A DNA stretch of 21,917 nucleotides, taken from Vulcanimicrobiales bacterium (lineage in GTDB: Bacteria > Vulcanimicrobiota > Vulcanimicrobiia > Vulcanimicrobiales > Vulcanimicrobiaceae). Below, in pieces: positions 10,104-13,048 of this stretch. A program made the position numbers and the translations under genes. The first letter of the stretch is position 1, and the number at the start of each line of letters is the position of its first letter. Location of the stretch: the NCBI GenBank assembly GCA_038231455.1, contig JBBRLI010000035.1:1-21917 (forward strand). Reading direction: 5' to 3'. Below the pieces are notes generated by a model that was given only the letters and a program-made list of their open reading frames with translations, was not told the origin of the DNA and did not search any database.

Positions 10104-10715
10104 ATGAAGATCATCCGTTCGATTGCCGCAGTGATGACACTGGGCTTGGCAGCAGCGGTGGCAGCACCGGCGCTAGCCATGGATAAAATGGACTCGGGCA
10201 TGAAGGGGATGTCCATGGCGCGCTTCGGCGGCGGCGTCTACACCGGCAAGCCGGACTTGCCGCTCACGCTCTCGGTGGTACTCGCCGGCGACGGCCCCAA
10301 GGAATTCAAGACGGTTAAGCTCGTCCACGCGCTTGCCGGAGACAAAACTGCCGGCGAAGTCGCTTCGCTCACCAAGAAATACGGCGCTGCGAACGTCGCG
10401 CAGTTCCTCAAGACGTTTGATTTTGTGATCAACGATTCGCTTGCGATCGTCACCAAGGCGAAGATCGCGCTTCCCTCGGATCCCGAGCCCGATCCCAAGG
10501 ACGGCAAAGCACTCGCGGCCGCCCTGTATAAGGCTGGCACGGATTCCAAAGGCAAGTTCACCGTCGAATACATGCTCGACCATCTCGTCTCGCACCCCGT
10601 GCACGTGCAAGTCATGAAAGACATCGACAAGAAATACGGCGTGAAAGCCGACGCAACGTACCACGTTGCGCTCACCCAAGTAATGTCTGACCTCAAAGCC
10701 GTCTACGGCCTCTAG
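10104..10715 (+). CDS. Secreted helical protein of unknown function with Met-rich N-terminus
   Basis: AAGGGA SD, signal peptide ending ALA, C/G-rich third codon positions, terminator directly downstream. Confidence 0.88.
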   Translation: MKIIRSIAAVMTLGLAAAVAAPALAMDKMDSGMKGMSMARFGGGVYTGKPDLPLTLSVVLAGDGPKEFKTVKLVHALAGDKTAGEVASLTKKYGAANVAQFLKTFDFVINDSLAIVTKAKIALPSDPEPDPKDGKALAAALYKAGTDSKGKFTVEYMLDHLVSHPVHVQVMKDIDKKYGVKADATYHVALTQVMSDLKAVYGL

Positions 10716-10734
10716 ACCCCGGCCTGGAAAACCA

Positions 10735-10771
10735 GAAGAGGCATGCCGATCGGCATGCCTCTTCGCTTTTT
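10735..10771. terminator. Intrinsic terminator, probably bidirectional
   Basis: Perfect 30-bp palindrome GAAGAGGCATGCCGATCGGCATGCCTCTTC (10735-10764), followed by GCTTTTT on + and TGGTTTT on -. Confidence 0.88.
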
Positions 10772-10772
10772 G

Positions 10773-11035
10773 ATTGTCTCGCAGTGCCGCGAAACGCGGT
10801 CCTACGAGGCGTCGTCCTTCGGTGGATCAGTTGCTTCCAAGAAGCCCCTCCTCTGAACGTTTTCAGCGCTTTGCAACTAGACGTGTTCACGTCCCCGCAC
10901 GGCGCGCTTCACAGCCGTTACGGTGAGTGATACCCAGGTGGATCTTGCGTTTGACCGCCCTCCTGCTGGGGCTTTTGCGTTGAATTTACCTCGAGGTGTT
11001 CGCATCATACTCCTCGGTTTGGGGACCCACAATAG
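10773..11035. ncRNA. Candidate structured non-coding RNA of unrecognised family
   Basis: Long intergenic gap in an otherwise tightly packed region, many complementary segments and an adjacent bidirectional terminator (details in findings). Family not recognised. Confidence 0.45.
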
Positions 11036-11147
11036 AGGCATTTACCACCTACTTTTATCGTAGGGAATCCATGCACAAACCGGCCGTTCGGTTCGTGCGG
11101 CGGATGCACAAACTGCGAAGCCTTCCTCCGAGGGTCGGCCCCGAAGA

Positions 11148-11867
11148 TTGACATTTCCCCCGGTGTTGTCGAGGGCGTACCGTGCGTTTACGCAAAGACT
11201 CATCCGCGATGCCACCTCGCCCGGAGCGCCGTTGAAGCTCTTTATCCGTCGAGCCGAAGCCGCGCTGATTTTCTCCGCATCGTTCGCGCTTGCCGCGCTC
11301 GTTGTGATCAACAAGACGGCCGTGAGCGCGTATCTTGCGAAGATCGGGATTTTTTCGTATCCCCTGGCGATTTTAATTTTTGCTATCGTCGCCTCGGCGC
11401 CGTTCTCCGTGACCGATGCGATTGCGGTCATGAATGGCGTCGTCTTCGGGCCGCTCTGGGGATCGGTCATTAATGCTGTGGGTCTGGTTCTCGCGGCGAT
11501 CGTCGGCTACGTGATCGCCCTACGCACGAGCAAACTGCTCGACATCGAGGCCAACGTCGCCCGGCTGCCCGCCTGGGCACGGCACTTCCGGATCGGCTCG
11601 TGGCAGTTTCTGCTGACCGTGCGGATCATTCCGGGACTGGGCGGCACGATTGCAACCCAGACCGCTGCGGCACTCAAAGTGCCGCTTTTCCGGCACGTCT
11701 GGACGATGTGCGCCATCGCAGTCCCGATTTGCACGCTCCTTGCCGTGACCGGCAATGGTCTAGCGGGCGTCTTGGAAGCGCGCGTCATGGTGCCGACGAA
11801 GAAATATATTCACGACCTTCGTCCGCATCAGCAACCTTCACCCAACCCGACTGCGAGCCAGCCTTGA
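11148..11867 (+). CDS. VTT/TVP38/TMEM64 (DedA superfamily) membrane protein; start uncertain
   Basis: GVVFGPLWGSVINAVG...GYVIA and LLTVRIIPG motifs; several TM helices. Confidence 0.8.
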   Translation: MTFPPVLSRAYRAFTQRLIRDATSPGAPLKLFIRRAEAALIFSASFALAALVVINKTAVSAYLAKIGIFSYPLAILIFAIVASAPFSVTDAIAVMNGVVFGPLWGSVINAVGLVLAAIVGYVIALRTSKLLDIEANVARLPAWARHFRIGSWQFLLTVRIIPGLGGTIATQTAAALKVPLFRHVWTMCAIAVPICTLLAVTGNGLAGVLEARVMVPTKKYIHDLRPHQQPSPNPTASQP

Positions 11868-13048
11868 ACGTCGCCCTCGTCGATACACCCGACGCGCTTG
11901 CCGCCGTGTGCGAACGCATCGCTCGTTCGCCGCGCGTCGGCGTCGATACGGAATTCCATAACGAGAAGAGCTACACGGCGCATCTGATGGTGATTCAGCT
12001 TGCGTTCGATGACGGCGTTGCGATCGTCGACCCGCTCGCGCTGCGCGACCTTCGCCCGCTCATCGATGCGCTTTCCGGCGCGACCGTCGTCGGACATGCG
12101 CTCTCGAGCGATTTGCGGATCTTCGCAGATACCTTCGATCGGTTGCCCGGGGCGGCGTTCGATACGCAAGCGGCGGCAGCGTTTTGCGGTTACGGACTGA
12201 CGATATCGCTGCTCGATTTGGTTCGCGAACTTGCCGGCGTCACGCTAAAAAAATCGCAGACCGTCTCGGACTGGAGCATGCGTCCGTTCTCGCCGAAGCA
12301 ACTCGAGTATCTCGTCGATGATGTGAAGTATCTCTTTCCGCTCCACGATGCCTTACAGAAAAAGCTGATCGAACGCGGTCGCGCAGAGTGGGCCGAAGAA
12401 GAGATGCGCGCGCTCGTCGACATCGACCGCTACCGCAGCGAATCGGCGCGTTTGTATCTGCGGGTCTCCGGTAACGCGCGCATGAATCGCCGCGAACTCG
12501 GCATTTTGAGCGAGCTTGCGATCCTGCGCGACCGGCTCGCTCGCGAACGCAACATCCCGCTTAAATACGTGATCCCGGACGACGTCCTCGTTGGTCTTGT
12601 TTCGCTGCGCCCAAAACAAGTCGACGAGCTTTCGCAACTGCGACGCCTCGATAATGGGATTAAGAAACACAGCGGCCCGCAGATCATCGAGGCGATCGCG
12701 CGAGGCGAGGCGATTCCCGAGGACGACTTGCCGCCCCGCGCCCCGCGCGCGCTCTCCTCGCAGCGCGAGGCGCTCGTCACCACGATGAATGTGCTCATCA
12801 GCGCCGTCGCAGCCGAAAACGACTTACCCTCGACGCTGTTGCTCTCGCGCAGTGGTCTCGAACGCATCGCCCGCGATTTGCCCGGCTCGGCCGATGAACT
12901 CGTCTCGCTCCTCGGGCTAGCTCCATGGCGTCGCTCGCTTGTCGTCGACCCGCTTTGGGAACTGTTGACGGGCGAACGCGTGGTACGAATCGAGGGTTAC
13001 GCTGAAGGCAACCCGCGTACGAGCTTCGATCTGACCGCAGCAGGCTAG
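11864..13048 (+). CDS. rnd: Ribonuclease D (DEDDy 3'-5' exonuclease plus HRDC)
   Basis: TTG 11864 overlaps the upstream TGA. VGVDTEF, IQL, GHALSSDL, FDTQ, SDWSMRP, YLVDDV, RDRLARERNIP. Confidence 0.92.
   Translation: MNVALVDTPDALAAVCERIARSPRVGVDTEFHNEKSYTAHLMVIQLAFDDGVAIVDPLALRDLRPLIDALSGATVVGHALSSDLRIFADTFDRLPGAAFDTQAAAAFCGYGLTISLLDLVRELAGVTLKKSQTVSDWSMRPFSPKQLEYLVDDVKYLFPLHDALQKKLIERGRAEWAEEEMRALVDIDRYRSESARLYLRVSGNARMNRRELGILSELAILRDRLARERNIPLKYVIPDDVLVGLVSLRPKQVDELSQLRRLDNGIKKHSGPQIIEAIARGEAIPEDDLPPRAPRALSSQREALVTTMNVLISAVAAENDLPSTLLLSRSGLERIARDLPGSADELVSLLGLAPWRRSLVVDPLWELLTGERVVRIEGYAEGNPRTSFDLTAAG

Follow-up and report, generated by a model that had tools for sequence, protein, structure and literature searches.

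A conserved minus-strand RNA unit with an Asp-Pro-Pro mini-ORF in a Vulcanimicrobiales genome: a candidate ribosome-engaging leader RNA detached from its gene

Introduction

Very short reading frames are known from several bacterial leader RNAs. In Salmonella, the 5' leaders of mgtA and mgtCBR contain the proline-codon open reading frames (ORFs) mgtL and mgtP. Ribosome arrest peptides, such as SecM, MifM, VemP and the RAPP-type ApdA and ApdP, form a further group, and the rimP-leader RNA motif of Firmicutes is represented in Rfam. Di-proline motifs need EF-P, D-P-P and P-P-G are strong pausing contexts, and CCA is the proline codon associated with stronger pausing. In this study, we describe an RNA element comparable to these systems in a contig of a Vulcanimicrobiales bacterium (GCA_038231455.1, JBBRLI010000035.1), of which positions 1 to 21,917 (21,917 nucleotides, nt) were analysed as one window. 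The element lies in the gap between two plus-strand genes and overlaps the interval 10773-11035, which the initial annotation had flagged as a candidate structured RNA. It is a conserved minus-strand unit belonging to a large RNA family that has no Rfam match, and it carries constraints of both the coding type and the structural type.

Published work gives such a unit a possible setting. PMC8129111 describes the use of the CCA codon to tune di-proline pausing, and PMC11611912 describes a G-initial E-site codon as a mark of strong X-P-P arrests. EF-P is reported to act on attenuators by way of transcription-translation coupling (PMC5021804). We read the element, with a probability of roughly 0.55, as a leader-type RNA that would engage ribosomes and pause them at Asp-Pro-Pro, and that is here detached from a downstream gene.

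Results

Coding-type constraint on a repeated module

Members of the family contain one or two copies of a module, which consists of a strong AGGAGGG Shine-Dalgarno sequence, a short covarying hairpin whose loop or loop margin carries a start codon, and a nearly invariant (C)AA GAU CCA CC; the repeated form can be written AGGAGGG-hairpin-(C)AAGAUCCACC. Among 151 distinct modules, 119 have ATG, GTG or TTG between AGGAGG and GAU and in frame with GAU. Start-type codons in the other two frames were found in only 3 and 8 of the 151. The in-frame starts (TTG 81, ATG 27, GTG 11) lie mostly 4-7 nt past AGGAGG. The 32 modules without a canonical start include chance matches inside genes of other phyla and family members with CTG, ACG or ATT/ATA/ATC at that place. 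The mini-ORF peptides begin M-(E/T/S/N/D)-(P/S/L)-Q-D-P-P-(G/K). Among the matches listed, the first proline codon is mostly CCA, with about 20 CCG, about 6 CCC and never CCT; glutamine is CAA and sometimes CAG, and aspartate is GAT, with GAC once. The codon changes among these matches (CCA to CCG, CCA to CCC, CAA to CAG) are synonymous. The initial annotation had described a structured RNA; the idea of a purely non-coding RNA is not supported, since the conserved core is a Shine-Dalgarno sequence, a start codon and a Q-D-P-P mini-ORF whose frame is retained in the 119 modules.

The window contains two copies of the module when it is written as AGGAGG(G)-short hairpin-(C)AA GAY CCN CC. Their minus-strand positions are 10964-10937 and 10852-10821, and both belong to a unit running from about 10999 to 10727, about 270 nt (273 nt as folded), which ends at a bidirectional terminator. 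Its features are as follows.

11030-11051, minus strand: putative upstream box TAGGTGGTAAATGCCTCTATTG, conserved in relatives and overlapping the -35 region
11027-11032, minus strand: putative -35 hexamer TTGTGG, read from the sequence, with a 17-nt spacer to the -10; relatives have TTG... there
11004-11009, minus strand: putative -10 hexamer TATGAT; relatives align with TACGAT, TATAAT or TAAGAT
10727-10999, minus strand: predicted transcript of about 270 nt, U-tract included, with ends set by promoter and terminator
10988-10997, minus strand: palindromic hairpin ACCUCGAGGU at the conserved 5' end
10937-10964, minus strand: module 1 (AGGAGGG, hairpin GCG-GUCAAA-CGC, CAAGAUCCACC), a pattern match; local fold z = -3.0
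10893-10925, minus strand: inter-module hairpin CACCGUAACGGC ... GCCGUGCGGGG, 12 pairs, of which 8 show changes on both sides
10880-10893, minus strand: small hairpin GACGU/ACGUC, present here and in the sister species with a single difference in the loop; sequences of other genera do not align
10821-10852, minus strand: module 2 (AGGAGGG, hairpin GCUUC-UUG-GAAGC with the start codon in its loop, AACUGAUCCACC), a pattern match
10802-10840, minus strand: mini-ORF 2, TTG GAA GCA ACT GAT CCA CCG AAG GAC GAC GCC TCG TAG, encoding MEATDPPKDDAS in 12 codons
10778-10808, minus strand: stop-codon helix, CUCGUAG (10808-10802) with CUGCGAG (10784-10778), enclosing the hairpin at 10787-10799; local fold z = -3.33
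10727-10764, minus strand: intrinsic terminator, a 13-base-pair (bp) stem at 10764-10735 followed by UGGUUUUCC, called on both strands and shared with the convergent plus-strand gene

The canonical in-frame start of module 2 is TTG (10840-10838). Mini-ORF 2 has 12 codons from its start in the window genome (G000) and in 11 relatives, with TTG, ATG or GTG as start, a count that does not include the sister species (G001) and G163; it stops five codons after D-P-P in all 14 aligned relatives. Module 2 carries ACU where CAA is usual. Module 1 retains the RNA fold and the frame; it has a near-cognate ACG (10950-10948) as its sole start-like codon, and its frame, QDPPGYHSP, reaches TAA at 10920-10918. 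In two relatives, G179 and G114 (loci L174 and L175), the second module is degraded, with GAU changed to AAU, and the G114 frame ends early; thus, modules can decay.

The promoter was read from the sequence and from relatives; the consensus scan, which requires 9 of 12 matches, did not call it. The -10 box and a transcription start near 10997-11000 are proposed positions. The upstream box, of the form TAGGTG.GA.TT..CC.CTATTG, precedes the two-module relatives L158-L162, L164-L166, L168 and L169, and L163 and L167 retain its CTATTG end only. At the 5' end, ACCUCGAGG is found in 12 of the 14 two-module RNAs and ACCUCGCGA in G075 and G055; other subfamilies have GUCUC-loop-GAGAC in place of the palindromic hairpin. 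At the 3' end, the minus-strand U-tract reaches about 10728, and the sister species has a hairpin there too, with a longer minus-strand U-run.

Structure and covariation

Across the 14 two-module RNAs, the 32 tested pairs were paired in 87.2% of cases, compared with 32-47% when the partner was slid. Eleven of the 32 have changed on both sides, a number reached by none of 500 shuffles. Eight of these 11 lie in the 12-pair inter-module hairpin at 10925-10893, which the initial annotation did not include. The inner hairpin was compared in 50 aligned modules. Its top pair reads GC in 24 of them, AU in 18, GU in 3 and UG in 2; the switch of this pair turns residue 3 from Pro to Ser while pairing is retained. 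The inner hairpin of module 2 is wholly unlike that of module 1 in sequence, and pairing is still possible. The GGA/UCC and GCG/CGC pairs hardly vary, and covariation gives no test of them. RNAalifold also put forward long-range pairings, of CCUC in the 5' hairpin with GAGG in the Shine-Dalgarno sequence and of CCUGGGU with ACCGAAGG; these are invariant, so that covariation neither supports nor rejects them.

The frame and the structure meet at the stop codon. Across the 14 two-module RNAs, mini-ORF 2 closes with 7 nt, its stop codon among them, that pair with a 7-mer located 6-18 nt downstream, so that the last two codons and the stop sit inside a conserved 7-bp helix. All seven pairs form in 10 relatives and six of seven in the remaining 4; the helix shows compensatory exchanges of the C-G/G-C and U-G/U-A kinds.

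The initial annotation had listed six local inverted repeats, and all of them are present (plus-strand coordinates 10787-10799, 10853-10866 with CTGAA/TTCAG, 10829-10878 with AGTTGC/GCAACT, 10880-10893 with GACGT/ACGTC, 10933-10970 and 10992-11016). The repeat GGTGGATC, reported at 10821 and 10937, is also there; read as its reverse complement, GAUCCACC, it gives the Asp-Pro-Pro codons of both modules. CCGCG/CGCGG (10787-10799) is the variable inner hairpin of the stop-codon helix. CCCAG/CTGGG (10933-10970) forms the outer stem of module 1, of which only 2-3 pairs are retained across the 14 aligned relatives. CGAGG/CCTCG (10992-11016) exists as a repeat; as a helix it would span the -10 box, and its outer arm (11012-11016) lies upstream of the putative transcription start. 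The proposed long-range pairing of 10798-10809 with 11012-11027 likewise has one arm upstream of that start, as does GTCCCC/GGGGAC (10891/11021) with its arm at 11021. These long-range pairs and the 10992-11016 helix are unsupported because they need bases upstream of the putative start. As for the suggested pseudoknot AAGCCCC/GGGGCTT, the sister species has substitutions and a 2-nt insertion at 10968-10972 that change the arm at 10968-10974 and break the pairing. The overall fold built on long-range pairs and a pseudoknot is accordingly unsupported, and the expectation of conservation with covarying helices was borne out by the alignments of relatives.

A stand-alone minus-strand unit ending at the bidirectional terminator had also been foreseen, and this agrees with our data, as does the absence of a known RNA class. 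Its bounds had to be moved: the element continues past the 3' end of the flagged interval to about 10728, and its 5' end, near 10999, falls short of 11035. The interval 10773-11035 alone folds no better than shuffles (z = -1.56 on the plus strand, z = -1.44 on the minus strand); the 273-nt RNA, terminator included, gave z = -4.30.

Conservation in the sister species

A BLAST search of 41 related genomes with the whole intergenic region recovered the whole region in the sister species only, plus two short weak matches. The core, 10797-11010, is identical at 207 of 217 positions (95.4%) between the two species. Identity is lower in the flanking non-coding DNA (38/58 on the terminator side and 86/112 on the promoter-distal side) and in the neighbouring genes (80-89% at the DNA level). 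This indicates that the core is more constrained than protein-coding DNA. A 54-amino-acid minus-strand ORF (10877-11041) was considered as the cause of this conservation and rejected: the sister-species insertion of 2 nt at 10968-10972 throws it out of frame, no start is left in the conserved frame, and its seeming Shine-Dalgarno sequence and ATG are the -10 box. One of the weak matches, in G018, is a chance match to coding-like sequence. A weak match in G022 (with the same sequence in the public locus L070) led to a shorter homologue that adjoins a bidirectional terminator and shares with the window, on the minus strand, AGGAGGG, the hairpin and CAAGAUCCACC; the window has the module twice.

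Distribution of the family

Of 201 genomes sampled from the same family, 124 contain the pattern AGGAGGGN{6,30}GATCCACC, which thereby occurs in 59 of 78 genera; its reversed control was found in none. With the wobble positions freed, 145 of the 201 genomes matched. In a phylum sample of 301 genomes, 124 of 206 from the window's family matched, the two nearest families gave 0/3 and 0/22, and matches outside the window's family were no commoner than in the control. A scan of named genomes found at least 120 loci. Among the 80 loci listed, 43 are named Eremiobacterota, Vulcanimicrobiota, Baltobacteraceae or genera of the latter, and 11 are named Planctomycetota or families of it. Judged by the names of the matching genomes, most members of the RNA family appear to come from Baltobacteraceae, a family of Candidatus Eremiobacterota. 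In the window's own assembly (93.67% complete), a loose scan found the two modules of the window and, beyond them, a single match that is likely due to chance.

Ten of the 80 listed loci are stand-alone M-Q-D-P-P units of Planctomycetota with terminators, composed of AGGAGGGC, a hairpin and ATG CAA GAT CCA CC; at one Planctomycetota locus a second copy is spelled GTG CAG GAT CCC CCT. Only 4 of 201 sampled Planctomycetota genomes matched, near the reversed-pattern control, so the module is rare in this phylum and confined to few lineages.

None of the Rfam 15 covariance models, including raiA, Ms1, the riboswitches, rimP-leader and glutamine-related models, matched the window or 16 related loci at gathering score. 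At E up to 10, the region 10600-11300 gave only a weak, chance-level SAH match outside the interval, and the 6S RNA model (RF00013) gave nothing in the window either at gathering score or with E allowed to reach 10. A housekeeping RNA was rejected on the lack of an Rfam match and on the presence of a 6S candidate elsewhere in the genome. This candidate, at C38:4065-4249 (plus strand) outside the window, is a full-length sub-threshold match (28.7 bits against a cut-off of 46.4, E 8.2e-4) and is probably the 6S RNA of the genome. Mimicry of the 16S ribosomal RNA 3' end (a GGAA-loop hairpin and a GAUC.ACC tail) was rejected as well; the GGAA loop is not conserved across members, and the 16S gene is unassembled in the window genome.

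Literature searches on small and regulatory RNAs of the phylum, on the MQDPP motif and on proline arrest peptides found no earlier description among the entries listed, subscription journals and supplements lying outside their coverage. Regulatory RNAs of Eremiobacterota did not turn up in these searches either.

Expression

Logan contigs from RNA libraries, counted at 95% identity or more, cover the element in four runs of two studies, together spanning 10757-10990. The contigs 10822-10990 and 10823-10979 have 0 differences from the window and 10757-10954 has 7; the contig 10822-10967 has the variants of the sister species. None fell on 10400-10756 or 10991-11400, an absence that is uninformative. 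Two contig pieces at 10562-10636, with 3-6 differences and loose ends, were assigned to other organisms.

Genomic context

The gene preceding the flagged gap on the plus strand (10104-10715) encodes a 203-amino-acid ORF with no Pfam match; it is convergent to the small RNA unit and ends at the perfect 13-bp hairpin 10735-10764. On the other side, a VTT/DedA-family gene starts at 11148 on the plus strand and is followed by an RNase D gene, both divergent from the unit. As called, the VTT/DedA ORF (11148-11867) and the RNase D ORF (11600-13048), both on the plus strand, share 268 nt, and the real RNase D start is probably further downstream. The stretch from the RNA promoter to the divergent VTT/DedA gene contains a direct repeat, ATGCACAAAC, at 11071-11080 and 11104-11113, 33 nt apart; the sister species retains it in part, and it could be a candidate regulator site. 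In the 3.4-kb sister locus, no homologue of the 203-amino-acid ORF was found, and a different open frame of 135 codons is convergent there.

Twelve related loci are of the window type (one of them, L003, rests on the unpublished genome G022). As in the window, VTT/DedA and RNase D genes lie upstream on the opposite strand in 11 of them. Downstream on the RNA strand, 9 have a NUDIX gene, mostly followed by an MBL-fold gene; a homologue of the 203-amino-acid ORF is convergent between the RNA and the NUDIX genes in 6. In the genus of G214, the NUDIX ATG lies a few bases past the terminator U-run.

Elsewhere in the family other genes follow the unit. The commonest form has the RimP and NusA genes next downstream (e.g., L033). 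At L017, the ATG of an ammonium transporter gene (amt) lies about 10 nt after the terminator, and an ammonium transporter is also the next downstream gene at L021; other subfamilies precede AurF-like or TetR genes. The amt and NUDIX starts at L017 and L159/L179 lie within about 10-15 nt of the terminator U-run and have no visible Shine-Dalgarno sequence, which is unusual for a translation start. The rimP-nusA leader of the window genome (C3:122000-122120) has promoter-like hexamers and a terminator-like hairpin, without the Q-D-P-P module that most relatives have there.

Discussion

The preferred reading is a leader-type RNA. Ribosomes would start on the module and pause at Asp-Pro-Pro, and the position of the ribosome, whether paused at D-P-P or unwinding the stop-codon helix, would set the fold and the fate of the RNA. 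A short ORF followed by an intrinsic terminator is present in the window (10840-10802 and 10764-10735). A co-oriented gene directly after the terminator is absent from it and is found at L017 (amt), L179 (NUDIX-MBL) and L033 (rimP-nusA). Because the unit with its terminator sits directly before genes in these relatives, it would most likely act there as a translation-sensing attenuator of rimP-nusA, amt or NUDIX-MBL. The window copy, whose terminator is followed by a convergent gene, is read as a detached leader for that reason, and may be an independent small RNA, a source of a tiny peptide, or both, similar to attenuator-derived small RNAs (sRNAs).

More tentatively, and with somewhat less than even chances, the Q-D-P-P mini-ORF might be a portable ribosome-pausing sensor, with stalling at Asp-Pro-Pro governed by how active EF-P is, by the supply of prolyl-tRNA or by the binding of a small molecule. 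One bacterial family would then have wired the fixed Shine-Dalgarno-hairpin-start cassette before the unrelated operons rimP-nusA-infB, amt and NUDIX-MBL and freed it as single or tandem small RNAs, with an M-Q-D-P-P version in a few Planctomycetota.

Several observations count against a ribosome-pausing leader. Initiation on the module, the pause at Asp-Pro-Pro and the control of RNA fate or read-through are all predictions from sequence. The 151 modules behind the count of 119 are phylogenetically related and include some chance matches from other phyla. The genome tallies (124/201, 145/201 and 124/206) include the unpublished genomes G020, G022, G045, G046, G058, G068, G112, G116, G124, G135, G149, G178 and G186. 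Logan contigs carry no information on strand or transcript ends, and DNA can be present in RNA libraries. The terminator of the window copy has no co-oriented gene behind it, the next gene (10104-10715) being convergent, and no antiterminator competing with the 13-bp terminator was evident in the minimum-free-energy fold, which was inspected by eye only. Module 1 lacks a canonical start in the window genome and in the sister species, as do 4 of the 14 two-module relatives and other modules of the family; thus, translation of every module cannot be essential. Finally, GAU, CCA and CAA are retained far more strictly than the peptide alone requires in a GC-rich genome, which indicates a constraint at the level of the RNA or of a ligand. 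This strict retention, together with the loss of the start in module 1, leaves some room for a non-coding or ligand-binding role.

The module could, in such a role, be the binding site of a protein or another RNA within a purely non-coding structured RNA, with AGGAGG and the start-like triplets as parts of the site. This is unlikely. In its favour, the hairpins covary, a canonical start is missing from module 1 of the window, and nucleotide conservation of GAUCCACC and CAA exceeds what the peptide requires. A CsrA gene is present in the genome, and AGGAGG and the UUGGAA loops contain GGA; the loop GGA is not conserved, however, and many members have UUGACA, AUGACU or GUGACA. Also against a binding site are the in-frame starts in 119 modules against 3 and 8, the alternation of TTG, ATG and GTG at one position, synonymous changes of the proline and glutamine codons, and an end five codons past D-P-P in all 14 relatives. 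A riboswitch-like sensor, in which a small aptamer for a metabolite or ion would hide or expose its own Shine-Dalgarno sequence and the mini-ORF would only couple the decision to the terminator, is more doubtful. Invariant nucleotides in internal loops between covarying stems would suit it, as would the tandem modules, known from some riboswitch classes, and the placing of unit and terminator before genes as unrelated as rimP-nusA, amt, NUDIX-MBL, AurF-like and TetR. The module is only about 30 nt long, however; its GGA/UCC pairing is invariant and thus without covariation support; the downstream genes share no pathway that would suggest a ligand; and no riboswitch model matched, glutamine-related ones included, in the window (E up to 10) or in the 16 relatives (gathering score).

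The 12-residue acidic peptide MEATDPPKDDAS could itself be the functional product of an mRNA, which we consider rather improbable. A reported precedent is peTrpL, a leader peptide functional in its own right (PMC7968998), and the N-terminal motif and the end five codons past D-P-P, the latter in all 14 relatives, are conserved. Residues 9-12 vary, however (KDDAS, KVVNS, KDGTP, KHDSR), and the stop-codon helix explains much of what conservation they have. One-module forms change the frame and length of the tail after D-P-P-G, and residue 3 changes along with a base pair. A plus-strand feature, in the form of a long 5' untranslated region belonging to the VTT/DedA gene that starts at 11148, is hardly credible, and so is a set of hairpins formed by chance in a GC-rich intergenic region. 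The interval does lie upstream of a plus-strand gene and alone folds no better than shuffles, but the Shine-Dalgarno sequence, start, frame, stop helix and order of promoter and terminator are all read on the minus strand, 11 of 12 related loci have the unit divergent from VTT/DedA, and sequence identity with the sister species falls on both sides of it.

The family is abundant and sharply defined; within about 30 nt it brings together a near-perfect Shine-Dalgarno sequence, a start codon presented by a covarying hairpin, and an invariant run of Asp-Pro-Pro codons. If the ribosome-pausing reading is true, the element would be a compact natural reporter of EF-P- or proline-dependent translation, and would exemplify a single leader cassette that several operons use and that is also released as an sRNA. 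If it fails, so strict a conservation of nucleotides points to a protein or a ligand as the partner. In either case, the element is open to direct in vitro study, for which culture of the organism is not needed.

Compared with known systems, the unit resembles 6S RNA in being a stand-alone structured RNA of about 200 nt, but the match to 6S is absent from the window, and the sub-threshold candidate lies elsewhere in the genome. Repeated GGA motifs on a terminated small RNA in a genome that encodes CsrA recall CsrB/RsmZ sponges; here there are two modules only, the loop GGA is not conserved (UUGGAA, UUGACA, AUGACU, GUGACA and others), and a sponge leaves the frame and start signals unexplained. 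A CsrA sponge was rejected, because the many loop-displayed GGA motifs are missing and the loops vary across members. The commonest relatives of the module occupy the same place as the rimP-leader motif, before rimP-nusA; they differ in that no Rfam family matched the window or the 16 related loci at gathering score, and the rimP leader of the window genome has no module.

The translational systems come closer. Like arrest peptides, the module has a conserved nascent motif ending in prolines upstream of regulated genes; those peptides are encoded by longer ORFs and open a downstream Shine-Dalgarno sequence of sec or yidC genes, whereas the ORFs here have 8-17 codons and arrest is predicted from the Q-D-P-P motif and codon choice. 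The likeness to mgtL and mgtP lies in a very short proline-codon ORF within a structured leader, where ribosome speed at prolines is thought to decide downstream transcription. No sequence relation to them was found, and the module family differs by its intrinsic terminators, its invariant arrangement of Shine-Dalgarno sequence, hairpin and start, and its possible tandem copies, with no downstream gene in the case of the window copy. In Sinorhizobium, the trans-acting sRNA rnTrpL, with its leader peptide peTrpL, is reported to derive from an attenuator that reads Trp codons in a known operon, and its targets have been mapped (PMC7968998). The window RNA differs from it in having neither Trp logic nor a known target or homology. 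What the two would share is a terminated leader with a mini-ORF that persists as an independent sRNA, and this is the role proposed for the window copy.

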